Assembly: GCA_918797485.1 (NCBI GenBank)
Contig: CAKKNE010000002.1
Span: forward strand, 5,952,001 to 6,016,000
From: Pelagomonas calceolata
Taxonomy: Eukaryota
Direction of reading: 5' to 3'
DNA length: 64,000 bases
In this document: positions 7,680-44,886 of the stretch, piece by piece
Numbering within the stretch: the first letter of the stretch is position 1
How the letters are laid out: every line of letters begins with the position of its first letter
Made by a program: the position numbers and the translations under genes
Notes under the pieces: model-generated
The model's input: the letters and a program-made list of their open reading frames with translations, nothing else
Told to the model about the DNA's origin: nothing
Databases searched by the model: none

Positions 7680-10256
7680 ATGGACTCCACCGAGACGACA
7701 CCGCGGCTCCAGCGGCGCCAGAGCTCCATTGATTTGTTGGCGCGGAGCCAGCGGCGCAGCGCGCGGCCGCCGTCGCGCCTTCGGCGCTGGATGCGAAGGC
7801 TCGCAAGCCTCCGGCGGCTCCGGAGCAAGGACGCGGTCGAGGCGCACGTCAACCTGCGGATGGACCAGGACGCGCGCTGGACCGTGAAGGAGTACCTCCT
7901 GGGGCACGTCGTCGGCCAGTTCGTCATGCTCTTCGTCATCGCCGTGGGCCTGGTCTGGGCGGGCACGCTCGCCTGGATCGCGGCGTGCACGTATCTGACG
8001 CCGCGGCGGCGCGCGAAGACCCCCGACTACAACACCAGCGTGATCCAGGCCCTCTGGTTCTCCTGGGGCGTCTTCTTCGACCCGGGGACGCAGACCGGCA
8101 TCGTGGCGGACGAGTACGTCGCGGTCAAGGTCGTGGCCGTCGCGTTTTCGGTCGTGGGGTTTTTGTTTAACCTCGTGCTCCTGGGGTTGATCGTGGAGCG
8201 GGTCAAGATCTTTCTGGACCGCATGGTCGAGACGTACGGGAAGATCGTGTGCACGAAGCACATTCTGGTGCTGGGCTGGACGGACCGGACGCTGTTTTTG
8301 TTGGGAGAACTGGCGGAAATGGCCCAGGGCAACGCCGCCCAGAAACGGACGACGATCGTCGTCCTGGGCGACCTGTCCCCGGCGGAGCAGCGCGCGGAGA
8401 TCCGGCAGGCCTTTCCGTCGTGGCGGGCGGCGTTTCCCGCGGTCGACGTCGTCTGCCGGCAGGGGAGGGCCTACGAGGTCGAGGACCTCGCCCGGGTCTC
8501 GGCCCAGGCGGCGGACACGCTCGTCATCCTGGGCGCGTCGCGCATCCCGAGGGACGCCGACGCGCAGACCATATCGACCGTGCTGGCCCTGAGGGCGCTC
8601 CCGTCGGCGCCCAAGTCCAAGTTGATCGCCGAGTTCCGCCTGTCGCAGTCGACGCACGTCTTCGATCGCGTCGGCGGCGACCGGAAATTAGTACCCATCC
8701 TCGCGGCGACGGTCGTCGACGCCGCGTTGGTGCGATGCGCGCTCGTCCCGCCCGTGGGCGCCGTGGCGCTGGACCTGTTGTCGTTCGAGGGCCAAAACAT
8801 AGAAATGATCCGCGCCGACAGGGCGGGCTGCGGCGGGCGGACCTTCGAGGACGTCAGGCGGCATTTTCGGACGGCCGTGGTCCTGGGCCTGGCGAGCAAG
8901 GAGAAGAAGAGCGTCGTGCTGGCGCCGCCCGACGACCGCCTCGTCGTGGACGACGACCTCGTCGTGTGCATCGCCGAGGACCAGACGGCGCTCTCCGACA
9001 TTAGCGAGCGCGCGACGCCGAGGGTGACGCCCCAGGACGTGCTGCGGCGGGCGGCGGGGCTCACGGGCCGCCGCCGGCTGGAGACGATCCCCGTGGACGT
9101 GCCGCGCGTCGACGTGGCGCTGGTCGGGTGGAACGACCGGGTCGTGCCGCTGCTCCGGGAGCTCGACCGGCACGTCGCGTCCGGCTCGGTCGTGCACGTC
9201 CTGTCCGAGAGGAGGTTGGACGAGCGGGAGCGCTCGCTGAAGGAGGAGGGGCTGACGCTGAAGGGCGAGTCGGTCTTCCGGGAGGACGACATCGGGCTGC
9301 GGAACGTGACCCTCGACCACGTCGTCGGCTTCGCGACGGACGTCTCTCAGCTCCGGCGGCTGCCGCTCGCGACCCTCGAGGCGGCCATCGTCATGGCCGA
9401 CATTGATCAGAACGCGGTGCAGTCGACGTCCGGCGCGGAGCTGCAGCTGGCCGACTCGGAGACGATCACCTCGACGCTGCTGCTGAGAGATATGCACGAA
9501 CGCTGTCGAGCCAAGGGCAAGGCGGAGTCGCCGCTGGTCATCGTGCCCCAGTTCCTGGACGTGCTGACCACGCGCGTGTTCAAGAGGCATCCCGGTTTGT
9601 TGGAGGAGGAGAGCGACGCCAACGCGATGGTCGGCGAGGACTCGTCCGACGACGACGCCGCGGCGCCCGGGTCGGCCTTTGGTGTGGGGCGGACGCTGTG
9701 CGTGCACCGGAACTTCCTGGAGACCGCGGCGCTGACGTCCTCGGCCTTGTCGATCTACGGCGCGATGGCGCTGCGCGCGCTACTAGGATTGGACGAAGCC
9801 CTGGGTCGACGCGCCGTCGGGCCGCCCCGGCTGCGCGTCGTGCGCTGCGACGCGTGCCTCGAACGGCCGTCGATCCGCCCCCGAGCCTTCGACGACCTCA
9901 ACGACGCCGTGCGACGGAAGTACGGCGCGTTAATGGTCGGGTGCTGTGTGGAAATCAAACCCGTGTGTCGGGTGCTCCGGCATCGCCAGCAGGCGTCGCG
10001 TCGATGGCGTGGAGGACGACGCGACGATTCAGCACGAACGCGCCGTAAAATTTTGATTTCCACACAGGTCGGGTGGTGCCGGCGGAACCGCGAGTCCCAC
10101 GGGCCGGACTACGGCGACCCGGAAGTGAACCCGCCCCGGGGCCGCGCGCTGGCCTGGCGCGGCGACGACCTGCTCGTCGTCGTCACGTCGAGCGGCATCA
10201 TGAAGTCCATCGTCGAGGCGGCGGCGCGCGGCGACGTAGCGGTCAGCGACCTTTAA
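7680..10256 (+). CDS. CASTOR/POLLUX(DMI1)-like cation channel with RCK domains; one intron 9936-10067; ~814 aa
   Basis: TM - pore (ALWFSWGVFFDPGTQ) - TM, then RCK signature HILVLGWTD and a second RCK (VALVGWND). The 132-bp in-frame introner is read through by the raw ORF. Confidence 0.85.
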   Translation: MDSTETTPRLQRRQSSIDLLARSQRRSARPPSRLRRWMRRLASLRRLRSKDAVEAHVNLRMDQDARWTVKEYLLGHVVGQFVMLFVIAVGLVWAGTLAWIAACTYLTPRRRAKTPDYNTSVIQALWFSWGVFFDPGTQTGIVADEYVAVKVVAVAFSVVGFLFNLVLLGLIVERVKIFLDRMVETYGKIVCTKHILVLGWTDRTLFLLGELAEMAQGNAAQKRTTIVVLGDLSPAEQRAEIRQAFPSWRAAFPAVDVVCRQGRAYEVEDLARVSAQAADTLVILGASRIPRDADAQTISTVLALRALPSAPKSKLIAEFRLSQSTHVFDRVGGDRKLVPILAATVVDAALVRCALVPPVGAVALDLLSFEGQNIEMIRADRAGCGGRTFEDVRRHFRTAVVLGLASKEKKSVVLAPPDDRLVVDDDLVVCIAEDQTALSDISERATPRVTPQDVLRRAAGLTGRRRLETIPVDVPRVDVALVGWNDRVVPLLRELDRHVASGSVVHVLSERRLDERERSLKEEGLTLKGESVFREDDIGLRNVTLDHVVGFATDVSQLRRLPLATLEAAIVMADIDQNAVQSTSGAELQLADSETITSTLLLRDMHERCRAKGKAESPLVIVPQFLDVLTTRVFKRHPGLLEEESDANAMVGEDSSDDDAAAPGSAFGVGRTLCVHRNFLETAALTSSALSIYGAMALRALLGLDEALGRRAVGPPRLRVVRCDACLERPSIRPRAFDDLNDAVRRKYGALMVGCCVEIKPVCRVLRHRQQASRRWRGGRRDDSARTRRKILISTQVGWCRRNRESHGPDYGDPEVNPPRGRALAWRGDDLLVVVTSSGIMKSIVEAAARGDVAVSDL
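9936..10067 (+). mobile_element. Introner intron 1 (132 bp, GT-AG)
   Basis: TSD gtcgggtg at 9936-9943 and 10068-10075. TIRs ctgtgtggaaatcaa (9944) ... ttgatttccacacag (10067). Confidence 0.95.
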
Positions 10257-40356: not shown

Positions 40357-42561
40357 TTACCGTCCCCCTTGCGGCAGCAGCTTCTCCAGGTGCGGCGCGA
40401 GGGCCTCGTAGAAGTCGACGACGCCCGCGTTCGCGATGCTCCCCCGGTTCGCGACGGGCCGCCCGCGCAGCAGGTTCATGCAGGCCATCTCGACCTTCTT
40501 CCCGTTGTTCGTCCGCGGCACGTCCGGCACGCGGCACACGATCGCGGGCACGTGCCGCGGCGAGCCCCGCTCCCGGATGGTCGTCTTCAGGGCCTTCGCG
40601 AAGGCGTCGTCGCACCGGCACAGCTCGACGAGCGCGTCCGCGTCGCCCGCGGCCGCCGCCGCCGTCAGCGCGTCGCGCGCGGCGGCGTCCGCGACTTGCA
40701 CGAAGAGCACGACGCGGACGTCGTCGATCTCCGTGTCGCCGTCCCGGGCGACGAAGGGCTGCGCCGAGACGAGCGCATCACTAAAATCCGGCGACGCGTC
40801 GAGCAGGGGCTCGATCGCGTTGTAGATCTCGGCCGTGCCGATGCGCACGCCGCCGGGGTTGAGCGTGGCGTCGCTCCGGCCGTGGATGATCAAACCGCCG
40901 TTTTCTGTAGGCTCGACCCAGTCCCCGTGCTGCCACGCGCGGCCGCCGCCGAAGGCGTCGTCGAAGTACGCCGCGCGGTACTTCGAGCCCTCTCTATCAT
41001 CACCGAGGAAGGCCAGCGGCGCGCAGGGGAAGGCGCTCCGGCAGGCCAGCTCGCCCTGCTCGCCCGCGGCGACCTCGCCGTCGCCCGCCTCATCCAGAAC
41101 GGCGACGTCGAGCCCGAGGCCGGCCGACTGGAGCTCCGCCTCGAAGACCGGCAGCCAGGGGTTGCCGCCGTGGAAGGACCCGTTGAGGTCCGTGCCGCCC
41201 GACGTCGAGTGGAGCCCCACGCCGGGCTTTTGGGAGGCGAGCCACGCGTACGCCGACGGCGGGCACGGCGACCCCGTCGAGCCGACGCGCTTCAGCGCCG
41301 CCAAGGGAGGCAGTGTCAAATTCTCCGCGGCGCAGGCGCCGAGGTAGCGCGCCGAGCCCCCTAATAAAACACTGTCTGATGATTGCGCGACGTCCCAGAG
41401 ATAGCCCACTGTATTTTTGCCCCGGGCGGGGCAGAACGTCGCGTCGCCATCATACAGCACGGCGGCGCCGCCCGTCGTCAGCGCCGCTCCTAATAACCAG
41501 TTCCACATCATCCACCCGGTCGTCGTGTACCACAGGCTCCGCTCGCCCTCCCTTAAGTCCCAGTGGAGCGAGCCCTCCTTGGCGTGGTTCAGCGCCACGC
41601 CCGGGCCCTGCACGATGCACTTGGGCTTTCCGGTAGTGCCGCTGCTGAACATAACATACGCGGGCCGGTCAAAGCCGCCCCTATCATACAAACACGGCGC
41701 GCCCGGCGCGCCGTAGTCCCGCGCCGCGACGGCGGGGAAGGGCAGTTTTACTGAAGAATCCATGGCCGCGTCGCCCGCGAACCCGTAGGGGAGGACGACG
41801 GCCCGCGCCGTCGTCTTCAGCGCGTCTCCTATCCCCGTGAAGTTTGATATTTTGTCCACCACATCAAATTCCCTCCCCCGATAGGAGTAGGCATCACTCA
41901 CAAACAGGACCTTGGGCTCCACCTGCGCCAGGCGGTCGAGGCAGCCCCGTTCCCCGAAGTCGGGCGACACCGACGACCACGCCGCGCCGAGCGACGTCGC
42001 GGCGAGCATCGCCGCGGCCGCGCCGGCGTCGTTCGCGACGACGCCGGCGACGCGGTCGCCCGGCCCGACGCCGTCCGCCGCCAGGCCCGCGCGGAGCCGC
42101 CCGACTTCCTCCCGGAGCGCGCCGTACGTCGTCTCGACCGGCGCCGCCGACCGCTCCGTGTACGACAGCAGGGCCAGGTTCTCGTCCGGCTTGTGCGGCC
42201 CCTCGAGCAGGAGCTCGGCGTGGTTGACGGCCGCGTCGGGGAACCAGTCGACCGCGCCGGGCGGGCCGGAATCGCGCCACGGCACCGCGCCGCGCGCGTC
42301 CCGCTCCCGGGGCCCGAGCGACCCCGGCAGGCGCACCGCATCAAAGACCGCCCGCCAGAACTGCCGCGGCTCGCTCACGCTCCGCGCGTGCAGCCGCTCG
42401 TAGTGCCGCCGGTCGTAGCCGCGCGGCCCGGCGCAGCCGATGAGCTTGTCGGAGAAGGCCGCCAGCCGGCTCGTGTTGACGTCGGCGAGCTGGGGCTTGA
42501 ACGACGGCGCCTTCGTGCCCAGCGCGCGAGCGGCGCCGCGGGAGAGGGCTCTCCGAGCCAT
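40357..42561 (-). CDS. AACS: Acetoacetyl-CoA synthetase (AMP-forming), probable mitochondrial presequence
   Basis: YVMFSSGTTGKPKCIV, YTTTGWMMWNWL, STSGGTD, WQHGD, GRSDATLNPGGVRIGTAEIY, GKKVE. Confidence 0.95.
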   Translation of the reverse strand: MARRALSRGAARALGTKAPSFKPQLADVNTSRLAAFSDKLIGCAGPRGYDRRHYERLHARSVSEPRQFWRAVFDAVRLPGSLGPRERDARGAVPWRDSGPPGAVDWFPDAAVNHAELLLEGPHKPDENLALLSYTERSAAPVETTYGALREEVGRLRAGLAADGVGPGDRVAGVVANDAGAAAAMLAATSLGAAWSSVSPDFGERGCLDRLAQVEPKVLFVSDAYSYRGREFDVVDKISNFTGIGDALKTTARAVVLPYGFAGDAAMDSSVKLPFPAVAARDYGAPGAPCLYDRGGFDRPAYVMFSSGTTGKPKCIVQGPGVALNHAKEGSLHWDLREGERSLWYTTTGWMMWNWLLGAALTTGGAAVLYDGDATFCPARGKNTVGYLWDVAQSSDSVLLGGSARYLGACAAENLTLPPLAALKRVGSTGSPCPPSAYAWLASQKPGVGLHSTSGGTDLNGSFHGGNPWLPVFEAELQSAGLGLDVAVLDEAGDGEVAAGEQGELACRSAFPCAPLAFLGDDREGSKYRAAYFDDAFGGGRAWQHGDWVEPTENGGLIIHGRSDATLNPGGVRIGTAEIYNAIEPLLDASPDFSDALVSAQPFVARDGDTEIDDVRVVLFVQVADAAARDALTAAAAAGDADALVELCRCDDAFAKALKTTIRERGSPRHVPAIVCRVPDVPRTNNGKKVEMACMNLLRGRPVANRGSIANAGVVDFYEALAPHLEKLLPQGGR

Positions 42562-43181
42562 TTTGTGCCAGCGGTGCACCGCAGCGCCGGAACGCAGCGA
42601 GTTGTGTAAATGGACGTAGTCAAAATGTAGTCGTGCACGCACGAACAGCCGATGACGACGGCTGGACGATTGCGCCGTATGCAGGCGTGTATCACCTTGC
42701 GATGGCGTCGAGCTTTGCCCACGAAAAATCGGATCGCTCCTTCTCCTAGCTGTCCGCGAGGGAGCTTTCATATAGCTGACAAGGAAGCATACGATTTATT
42801 TCGTGCGGGTCGGCCTGCTCCTCAGCTGGGCGAGTCGCCGCTGCGCCTCTAGCGCGACACTGAGCACCCCCCATAATATTTCTCTCGGCTGGAAAGGACC
42901 AGCCTCTTCGGCGCTGCGCGCTCTGGAAGCGACGCTGCGTAATTTGACTCAGCTGACACAAAAGGAGGGAAAAGGCAGTTTCAGCAAAGGACGCCCTAAA
43001 CGCCGCGCGGGGCCGCCCGCCGCGTAACGCGCAGCTCACAGCTCGTGTCGCGCGGCGTCCCAAAAAATCCTAGCGATTGAGGCGGACCCCCCGCGCGCGC
43101 GCCGGGGCGAGAGGGGCGTCCGCGCGTAGCACGCCTTTTTCCCCCCTGTAGGCTCCGGGAGCGGCGCCGCCTGCCTCCAAA

Positions 43182-44886
43182 ATGGAGTTCGCACCGCCGC
43201 CGCCGCCCGGCGGCATGAACGGCGCCGGCGCGTCGCCCGGCGCGCCGCCGGAGACGTCGCCCGACTCGGTCGCCTACACGCCGTCCGGGCCGCCGCCGGA
43301 CGCGCCCCCCGCCGTGCCCCCCGCCGCGCCGCCGGCGCCGCCGGCGCCGCCGGCCGCGCCGGCCGCGCCGCCGGCGCCCGCCGAGGCGCCGCGGGCCTCG
43401 ACGGGCGGCTTCTCGGAGCTCGGCGACGCCGACGCGGCGCCGCCGGCGGCCCCCGCGGCGCCGCCGGCCCCGCCCGCACCCGCGCCCATGGACACGACGC
43501 CGGCCGCGCCGGCGCCCGTCAAGGCGGAGCCGGCGCCGGCCGCCGCGCCCGAGGTCCCGCCGCGGCCCGTCGAGCGCTACTTCCTCACCGCGCGCTTGGA
43601 ACGGGGCCAGATCGGCGGCAAGCACCAGCAGGGCGTGGTCCTGCACGGCCCCTGGCGCAACCAGATCAACGTCGTCGGCGCGCAAGCGCGGTACAACCTG
43701 GACGTCACGCAGAACCCGATCCCGCCGGACATCACCGACCTCCCGCCGAGCGGCCAGCGCGGGCCGGCGTCCCTGCGCACTTCCTTCATCGCTTTCGTGG
43801 CCTAATGGACAAGGCGTCTCCCTCCTAAGGAGAAGATTGCGGGTTCGAGTCCCGCCGAGAGCCAAAGACGGGACCCGCGCGCCGCTCCGCAGGTGGCCCG
43901 GCCGCATGAACTTCGGCGGCACGGCCCAGACCAAGCGGACGCAGATGGTCGACCGCATGGCGCTGCGCTTCTCCAAGACGGACCCGGGCAAGTGCAAGTT
44001 CGAGGGCGAGGGCGCCAACCGCGTCGGCAAGTACGTCGTCACGGGCACGGGCGCGTTCCGCGACGGCGGCTGGGACCTGGAGTGCGAGCGCGTCTACACG
44101 CCGAACGCCCCGGCCCTGCCGCCCGCCCCGGCGGCGGGCAAGCGCGCCAAGGCGAACCCGCTCGCCTTCGCGGGCGCCGGCCCCGCGCTGTCGCCGCGGC
44201 AGCCGCGCGCCTCCGCGCCGAAGAAGGGCGCCTGGGGCGCGGCGCAGCGGGACGCCGCGGCGGAGGAGGGCGGTGCGCGGAAGAAGGCGCGGCGCGGCGG
44301 CGCGTCCGCCGCCGCGCAGGCCCTCGACCAGCGGCCGACGCTCGTCGTGCTCTACCCGCAGCCGGGCCCGGGCGGCAACCCGCTGACGGCCTACAAGTAC
44401 CCCTCGCTCTCGGCCGCGAAGAAGCGGGCCAAGGGCCTGGTCGAGAACGTGCAGTTCACGATCCGCGTGCCGCCCGAGGGCGGCGACGGCGTCGTCTTCC
44501 CGCCGGAGGGCGAGGACGCGCTGCGCTACCTGGCCGAGGCGATCGGCCACAAGGCGCTGCCGCCGCAGCCCGACGTCCAGATGCCGCCCCACGTCGTGAC
44601 CTGGGACATCGACGCGCCGAACGCGAAGCGGCGCCCCTGGGCGGCGAACGTCGCCGCCTTCTCCACGGAGCAGCGCGCCGCGGCGATGATGCGCCACCTC
44701 TACCTGACGGCGGGGCCACGCCTCAAGTACGCGTGGTGGGGCCGCTTCGACCCCGGATCCGCGGCGCAGACGGCGACGCCGCAGTGCCGGCTGACGGGCC
44801 TGGGCCAGTTCGAGCCCACGTTCCCGGTCACGTCGCTGGCCGTGCTCGAGGACCTCCAGAAGGGGCCGCCCGCGGCGGCGGCCTAG
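43182..44886 (+). CDS. Hypothetical Pro-rich protein with a predicted tRNA-containing intron (43757-43892); ~522 aa
   Basis: ORF 43182 stops inside the tRNA and ORF 43837 continues in the +1 frame. Removing 136 bp (GC...CCGCAG) gives PPSGQWPGRMNF. An alternative GT donor at 43769 (124 bp) also restores the frame. Confidence 0.7.
43791..43863 (+). tRNA. trnR-CCU: tRNA-Arg, anticodon CCT
   Basis: Acceptor GCTTTCG/CGAGAGC; D-stem GCCT/AGGC; anticodon stem TCTCC/GGAGA with loop CT-CCT-AA (43824-43826); T-arm GCGGG-TTCGAGT-CCCGC; intact A and B boxes. Confidence 0.97.

Follow-up and report, generated by a model that had tools for sequence, protein, structure and literature searches.

A tRNA-Arg(CCT) gene in a spliced intron of Pelagomonas calceolata and its recurrence in predicted introns of unrelated pelagophyte-like genes

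Introduction

Nuclear tRNAs are generally taken to be products of RNA polymerase III (Pol III). Small RNAs encoded within introns are familiar from intronic snoRNAs and mirtrons. The papers on the closest described systems are cited here for their accessible text. In Caenorhabditis elegans, 44% of the tRNA genes are intronic, which matches chance expectation from intron content, 56% are in the sense orientation, and Pol III occupancy was measured; the authors treat the release of a tRNA from a spliced intron as a theoretical possibility (PMC4999229). The release of ordinary tRNAs from spliced introns has also been named as a possibility, with no shown case in the accessible text, in a paper that describes the tRNA-Sec of Trypanosoma brucei as a Pol II product (PMC2943599). 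Arabidopsis has 19 sense tRNA overlaps, and canonical nested tRNAs in that plant had no effect on splicing (PMC6152437). The arthropod RNase P RNA is intron-encoded (PMC6797745). An oligo-T tract is absent from the polycistronic tRNAs of Chlamydomonas and from 60% of Physcomitrella tRNA genes (PMC3531208).

Pelagomonas calceolata, the source of the DNA analysed here, is a globally abundant marine alga. A 2016 paper is said to describe introners in Aureococcus. The P. calceolata genome has 0.49 introns of 214 nt per 1.9-kb gene and 11% intergenic DNA, and its introners have been described (bioRxiv 2021.10.25.465678), as has a diversity of introners that includes TSD-free families (bioRxiv 2022.06.06.494994). 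The string 'trna' occurs 0 times in these two preprints. In our literature search, whose coverage was thin for subscription papers and excluded supplements, the layout described below was unreported; the words 'intronic', 'polycistronic' and 'host gene' are absent from the accessible text of a 2026 review (PMC13578239), and the accessible parts of PMC11237714 and PMC11282704 contain nothing relevant to a tRNA-intron layout.

The locus resembles the nested tRNAs of C. elegans and Arabidopsis in that a Pol II gene has a canonical tRNA within one of its spliced introns. It differs from them in that the tRNA makes up most of an intron of 112-136 nt, all cases are in sense, the oligo-T is missing, arrays occur and a whole intron recurs in unrelated genes. 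With intron-encoded stable RNAs it shares a stable or normally Pol III-made RNA that sits in sense in a Pol II intron with no terminator of its own; the cargo here, however, is a decoding tRNA, single or in an array, and its dependence on the host is putative. The trypanosome tRNA-Sec is a precedent for a nuclear tRNA that is cut from a Pol II transcript, although in that case it is one special tRNA in a polycistron and not in a cis-spliced intron, whereas here at least eight standard anticodon types with intact boxes are involved. GUT15 of Arabidopsis likewise yields a tRNA-shaped RNA from an intron of a Pol II transcript, but that is a single non-canonical tRNA-like RNA in a lncRNA and it slows splicing, while here the tRNAs are canonical, the genes are coding and the intron with junction reads is efficiently spliced. 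The polycistronic tRNAs of Chlamydomonas are comparable in their close spacing and lack of poly(T), but are not described as intronic in the accessible text (PMC3531208), in contrast to the array inside a coding gene reported here.

Results

A tRNA-Arg(CCT) in a spliced intron of a coding gene

The window, by which we mean the whole stretch of 64,000 nucleotides that was analysed (contig CAKKNE010000002.1, positions 5,952,001 to 6,016,000), is eukaryotic DNA of 70% GC. The features of the locus, in window positions, are the following.

43045..43151, + strand: 5' UTR intron without a tRNA, 107 nt, GT..AG; joint 43044->43152 in 33, 35, 18 and 42 reads
43182..43756, + strand: coding exon 1 of the host gene, a Pro/Ala-rich N-terminus followed by a conserved region, without a Pfam family
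43757..43892, + strand: GC-AG spliceosomal intron with the tRNA, 136 nt (3n+1); 768 junction reads in 4 of 4 runs; also found at 4 metagenome loci
43757..43790, + strand: 5' flank of the tRNA, 34 nt, with the GC donor, the 5' arm of the terminal stem and a pyrimidine-rich leader
43791..43863, + strand: tRNA-Arg(CCT), intact; anticodon 43824-43826; A and B boxes; A20; discriminator C73
43803..43805, + strand: in-frame TAA in the tRNA D arm, which ends the unspliced frame after 207 aa
43864..43892, + strand: 3' flank of the tRNA, 29 nt, without oligo-T, with the 3' arm of the terminal stem, the likely branch region and the CAG acceptor
43893..44886, + strand: coding exon 2 to the stop codon; spliced frame 522 aa

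ARAGORN detected a single tRNA in the window, the tRNA-Arg(CCT) at 43791-43863 (+), which scores 67.1 bits over the full Rfam model RF00005, has the cloverleaf as its minimum-energy fold and carries one G-U pair in its acceptor stem. Its A and B boxes were judged against their general consensus, and C73 is an unusual discriminator for an Arg tRNA. The sequence-only reading had described an intact tRNA in sense within an intron, set off by flanks of 34 and 29 nt and interrupting a coding gene to which it supplies an in-frame stop, and this description stands: the host frame stops at codon 208 if unspliced (207 aa, TAA at 43803) and gives 522 aa once the intron is excised.

Four poly(A) runs contained the joint 43756->43893, with GC..AG ends, in 249, 205, 140 and 174 reads. 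These runs are 4 of the 24 listed, used as raw reads from one sample at 6-12% of each run; the + strand of the joint was assigned by the usual library convention, and poly(A) libraries are blind to mature tRNA. The junction-read check proposed by the earlier reading therefore came out positive in 4 of 4 runs, and it is confirmed that the 136-nt GC-AG segment is a genuine spliced intron. That reading had left the donor open between GC 43757 and GT 43769; the GC site is the one used (768 reads), and the GT site was rejected in its favour, as no joint at 43769 is listed in the reads. Orthologues of the host protein continue through the 43756/43893 join and, together with the junction reads, refute an arrangement of two separate genes with an intergenic tRNA. 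Among named homologues, the nearest to the host protein belongs to Aureococcus anophagefferens (46% identity), and a Pfam search with the protein gave no match. Taking the depth at the 3' end of the tRNA minus the reads that run into other loci (at most ~30, 27, 36 and 18 reads), we estimate retention of the tRNA intron at no more than roughly 9-20%, a figure taken from read tables that are not strictly additive.

Other findings concern the uniqueness of the intron. It had been singled out as the sole predicted intron without introner TIR or TSD, but the 107-nt intron at 43045-43151 is also without the introner TIR word. Nor is this the sole Arg-CCT gene: at least three other Arg-CCT contexts were found in the same runs and 20 loci in a metagenome scan. 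The proposed special tie of AGG decoding to this host is weakened by the other Arg-CCT contexts in the reads and by the host itself, which uses AGG for 0 of its 32 Arg codons; AGG makes up 6.7% of the Arg codons in 21 long window ORFs.

Several other observations concern the surrounding DNA. The start of the 5' UTR intron resembles the 5' flank of the tRNA introns, and an A run at 43061 is length-variable in the reads. A shared 5' motif was considered as a marker of tRNA introns and dropped, since it has 36 matches on the two window strands against ~18 per strand expected and also starts this tRNA-free intron. Minor CG..GG joints at 44036-44373 skip 262 or 336 nt in a part of exon 2 that is very GC-rich and poorly covered, and are probably the result of template switching. 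The divergent neighbour at 40357-42561 (-) encodes an AMP-binding enzyme, which we take to be acetoacetyl-CoA synthetase-like. A 44-nt repeat family lies at window positions 2906, 3035, 14299 and 50150 in apparently non-coding DNA. Two tRNA-Gly calls with 'introns' of 1.5-1.9 kb, obtained when ARAGORN was allowed long introns, are artefacts.

Recurrence of the layout at metagenome loci

Metagenome contigs were scanned with one tRNA core, that of Arg-CCT, so that Arg-CCT genes and their neighbours are what was sampled. The scan returned 20 loci, of which 16 are GC-rich (0.64-0.78) and pelagophyte-like, while the 4 at 36-56% GC are from other eukaryotes. Scans of viral contigs and of genome contigs with the tRNA pattern gave 0 matches. 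The GC-rich loci fall into the following groups.

Group A (L001, L004, L013, L015): the window's host gene
Group B (L002, L009, L016): a protein with cold-shock, CCCH and RS-rich parts
Group C (L006, L011, L020): Auto_anti-p27 repeats
Group D (L005, L017, L018, L019): a protein without a Pfam match
Group E (L014): two gene pieces without a Pfam match
L003: a likely chimera

Gene E is presumably oxygenase-like, judged by its motifs. At the GC-rich loci the tRNA lies in sense within frame-breaking GY..AG segments, with seven complete sites in five unrelated genes, and 0 of the 16 loci are intergenic copies. Nine intron entries (seven sequences, seven distinct sites) were checked directly and the other loci were assigned by flank identity; each checked entry is a GY..AG segment of 112-811 nt whose excision restores an open frame. 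Junction reads confirm splicing for the window intron, and from reading frames and homologues the corresponding segments of the other four genes are predicted to be introns too. The cold-shock domain continues across the L016 segments and L002 holds an uninterrupted form of one L016 site, the gene C join matches an earlier repeat in the same protein, and among 80 gene D proteins 25 pass through the predicted join, 26 enter the intron and 29 are without the site. One of the gene D read-through proteins is a transcript-backed P. calceolata record, and the read-through forms may be transcripts. Taken together, tRNA genes in introns are strongly indicated to be a lineage-wide arrangement.

The poly(A) reads contain other Arg-CCT copies, in sense, with flanks that start donor-like or end acceptor-like, as well as two copies in tandem, separated by 19 nt. 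Some loose read ends agree with both flanks of L006 (30 of 30 letters) and some with an L002 donor flank over its first 20 letters; the organism of the window therefore has C-type and B-type loci, and the L006 locus is present in its poly(A) RNA. A tRNA identical to that of the window is present at another site. A joint that goes back 73 letters (48, 25, 25 and 12 reads, with 19 letters between) raised the possibility of a circular or permuted precursor, but a tandem pair elsewhere explains it better, because pairs of this kind are present in L002, L009 and L016, where the spacer is 13 nt long and has the same first five letters.

Three of the metagenome loci call for separate mention. The group A allele at L013 has an intron of 128 nt instead of 136 nt, and in its tRNA one acceptor-stem pair is lost through a change at position 3; it may be a variant allele or an assembly error. 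L008 (1-2210), which is 56% GC and from another eukaryote, carries 18 tRNAs, a 5S rRNA and an SRP RNA on one strand, some of them 0-2 nt apart, with T4 after 4 of the 18 tRNAs. In L012 (197-2373), 19 tRNAs are spread over the two strands of 2.5 kb of DNA, with spacers that are AT-rich.

A seven-tRNA array in gene B

At L016 gene B has three interruptions, at 185-995, 1080-1328 and 1613-1738. The first splits the cold-shock domain and contains seven tRNAs in sense, namely Ala-TGC, Arg-TCG, Arg-TCT, Ser-TGA, Leu-TAG, Leu-TAA and Trp-CCA, two of which are 5 nt apart; the second contains two Arg-CCT and the third contains one. The cold-shock site at which L009 and L016 carry the Arg pair is uninterrupted in L002, which instead has a donor-like flank and an Arg pair in its CCCH finger, where L009 and L016 have none. 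L002 contains the region twice, and the difference between these copies, 13 of 129 letters, makes it a probable chimera of two lineages.

Six of the seven array tRNAs have U34 anticodons, and the A-ending codons that they read make up 1.0-5.4% of the codons for the respective amino acid. The enrichment of U34 has p 0.002-0.005, for a pattern that was noticed after the fact in one array. A tRNA set under such low demand could plausibly be supplied by one copy per message. ARAGORN missed two members of the array that Rfam recovers: tRNA-Ser(TGA) at 560-665 has a T-arm insertion of ~25 nt (46.7 bits), and tRNA-Leu(TAG) at 674-774 has a D-loop insertion of ~23 nt (52.9 bits). These insertions are likely to be non-canonical tRNA introns nested in the predicted spliceosomal intron. 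A tRNA-Trp-like 3' half at 456-545, with no visible 5' half, also lies inside the array and may be a decayed copy, an assembly error or a split gene.

Relation of the intron-plus-tRNA units to one another and to introners

In groups C, D and E the tRNA is common in 73 of 73 letters, the first intron letters agree at 15-16 of 16 positions, and the 3' flanks have 17-22 matches in 18-23 aligned letters, whereas the adjoining exon letters of the different genes match at 3-9 of 16 positions, so that homology stops at the splice sites. The window intron matches the other single-tRNA introns at 12-13 of its first 16 nt, and both it and site B3 are more distant relatives. These similarities make it likely that tRNA-bearing introns jumped between genes, and the moving unit would be the exact intron, which would fit reverse splicing or a TSD-free introner route.

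The resemblance to pelagophyte introners lies in repeated introns at unrelated sites with GT/GC donors, paired ends and a following exon that mostly starts with GY; groups C, D and E, whose introns are nearly the same although their sites are unrelated, are candidate introners in the wide sense of the term. Those in the window, however, have 8-nt TSDs and a TIR of their own, while the tRNA introns keep their own donor, carry a tRNA and match at 1-6 of 8 positions in the 8-nt TSD test (eight entries; 2 of 8 for the window tRNA intron). Six window introners match at 7-8 of 8 positions; they lie at 9944, 20719, 31670, 34466, 34789 and 51639, are 108-203 nt long with a shared TIR and 8-nt TSDs, and 5 of the 6 start with GT or GC. 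The introner TIR words occur at 14 other places in the window and at 0 in the tRNA intron, which is outside the known TIR/TSD introners. The TIR word of the window's introners is also present at three loci of group D, and scans of contigs for introner words returned 0 matches and 1 short contig without a tRNA. A tRNA-derived SINE has a decayed tRNA head, an unrelated body, an A- or T-rich tail and a TSD. When these features were looked for in the tRNA introns, the tRNA was intact, the trailer was 18-29 nt, and no tail and no TSD were found.

Protein clusters bear on the age of the window intron. Among the members listed for each cluster, 14 of 15 in the host gene's own cluster start after the intron, 14 of 15 in an 83%-identical cluster pass through the intron site, and 11 of 15 in an Aureococcus-like cluster do so, the remainder of the latter two being without the region; some of the read-through members are on contigs of 9.6-193 kb. 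If the protein calls of these relatives are intron-blind, the window intron would be a recent gain. For the tRNA introns as a whole, the evidence of absence in relatives consists of protein calls and the probably chimeric L002 contig, and their sites appear to differ between lineages.

Terminators, tRNA integrity and the terminal stem

A run of T4 within 30 nt downstream is found for 1 of 14 distinct tRNA genes of the GC-rich groups. At most sites the next T4 is 489 to more than 2000 nt downstream, and there is none within 2.1 kb of the window tRNA; one spacer in L002/L009/L016 carries T5. The claim that no T4 occurs on the + strand for more than 1 kb was correct, as there is none between 43141 and 47000, but it is weak alone because 29% of window positions are without T4 in the next kb. 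The low-GC loci are not a clean control, with T4 within 30 nt for 2 of 2, 9 of 19, 4 of 18 and 0 of 1 genes. Absence of oligo-T is non-diagnostic of a Pol II origin, because tRNA genes of Chlamydomonas, Physcomitrella and the low-GC control loci are also often without it.

The uninterrupted pelagophyte tRNA copies score 61.8-69.7 bits with Rfam. The eight single-tRNA introns share a terminal stem of 9 pairs that covers the donor; pairing in it is 94%, and at three of the pairs both letters have changed. Its covariation score was reached by 1 of 500 shuffles and its pair count by 17 of 500. We consider that conservation of this stem by covariation has modest support, because the structure was derived from the same alignment of related sequences. 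The complementarity of the window intron's flanks, which had been thought to fold the intron into a stem, is real (7 perfect pairs) but does not go beyond composition, as 221 of 1000 shuffles were as good and the whole-intron z is -0.70. The hairpin was therefore rejected as a special feature of the window intron; only groups D and E gave p 0.003-0.012, uncorrected. A branch-like CTCAC lies 14-22 nt from the AG in the related introns and is altered in the window copy. In L011, L014, L017 and L019, a palindrome of the tRNA 3' strand and trailer includes this CTCAC, and the resulting hairpin could compete with the acceptor stem.

Discussion

We propose that these tRNAs are released from Pol II introns, in the manner of intronic snoRNAs, and that the introns which carry them move; we give this reading a probability of about 55%. 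Release from a Pol II intron has strong circumstantial support, by analogy with intron-encoded RNAs, because five host genes show the layout, in sense every time and with oligo-T nearly absent, and one case is a seven-tRNA array. Pol II would transcribe the host gene together with the intron and its tRNA or tRNAs, and the spliced intron would then be debranched. RNase P/Z would trim the tRNA from the excised intron and CCA would be added, the short spacers would let one intron yield several tRNAs, and whole introns would be copied to new sites.

The window tRNA shares with intron-encoded stable RNAs its position in a spliced intron, in the sense of its host and with no terminator of its own. 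Of the properties of a Pol III tRNA gene it has the cloverleaf and the boxes, and not an oligo-T shortly downstream. It would appear to work like an intron-encoded small RNA, a class of which it is a putative member. The sense orientation of 7 of the 7 complete sites is not equivalent to seven independent trials, because the sites are related by descent, and the bias could be due to the way in which the introns spread.

The strongest alternative, which we nevertheless consider unlikely, is that these are ordinary Pol III genes nested in introns, with non-canonical ends or with readthrough followed by RNase Z trimming, and with the sense bias and tight fit arising from the spread of the introns. 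Judged from their sequence, the genes could be used by Pol III, given intact A and B boxes, and nested tRNA genes are common elsewhere, as the 44% of C. elegans tRNA genes and the 19 sense overlaps in Arabidopsis attest. Also in favour of this reading, Chlamydomonas and Physcomitrella have tRNA genes that are T-less or polycistronic, T runs are scarce in DNA of 70% GC, one spacer has T5, and at the L008 locus of another eukaryote 18 tRNAs with 5S and SRP RNA share a strand on which T4 runs are few and nothing points to an intron. Against this, none of the 16 GC-rich loci is intergenic, though by our own arithmetic the intergenic DNA of P. calceolata is ~2x the intronic, all sites are in sense, and the next T4 is mostly 489 to more than 2000 nt away. 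The leaders are also GC-rich, only 20-34 nt long and begin at the donor; TFIIIB would therefore have to occupy the coding exon.

It is improbable, in our view, that the units are selfish, tRNA-derived mobile introns in which the tRNA aids spread or is inert cargo and the working tRNAs come from unseen intergenic genes. The C73 discriminator, odd for Arg, would suit such an element, as would the presence of almost the same unit in three unrelated genes, where similarity stops at the splice sites, and a terminal stem with three doubly changed pairs. Introner families free of TSDs do exist, according to the accessible text of bioRxiv 2022.06.06.494994. However, the tRNAs are undecayed (61.8-69.7 bits for the uninterrupted pelagophyte copies), the changes in the anticodon stem between copies are compensatory, the 16 loci include no intergenic Arg-CCT, and an array of seven isotypes is unlike a SINE or MITE.

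The sequence-only reading had suggested a regulatory device, in which RNase P/Z would cut the unspliced message in competition with splicing and thereby set the level of host mRNA; we hold this to be very improbable. In its favour, a tRNA-like element inhibits the splicing of its own intron in Arabidopsis GUT15 (PMC6152437), retention here would end the frame at codon 208, the donor is covered by the terminal stem, and in groups C, D and E the tRNA 3' strand can pair with the branch-like CTCAC. Against it, spliced molecules predominate in the poly(A) RNA of 4 of 4 runs with no read-end pile-up listed at the tRNA borders, the hosts are without an evident common function, and canonical tRNAs left host splicing unchanged in Arabidopsis (PMC6152437).

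Release of the tRNAs from Pol II introns is the reading we prefer, and it leads to a wider proposal that we put forward tentatively, at a little less than even odds: the alga may have moved part of its tRNA set, chiefly low-demand isoacceptors, into spliceosomal introns, so that Pol II would make these tRNAs, which would be trimmed out of excised introns one at a time or in arrays of up to seven, and the units would be mobile and create introns in unrelated genes. The lineage offers a clean test, since its introns are tiny and mostly tRNA, all in sense and terminator-free, and cultured strains and a chromosome-level genome exist. For annotation, intron-blind gene calls split such hosts, as seen in the listed members of the host gene's cluster that start after the intron. 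The finding would be categorically new if both Pol II origin and mobility were shown. If the proposal is true, intronic snoRNA clusters would have a counterpart among tRNAs, and the units would be introners of a new kind, with an essential gene as their cargo; tRNA supply would be tied to mRNA synthesis and splicing, and an intron with a needed tRNA would have grounds for being kept and for spreading, a point of relevance to the origin and fixation of introns.
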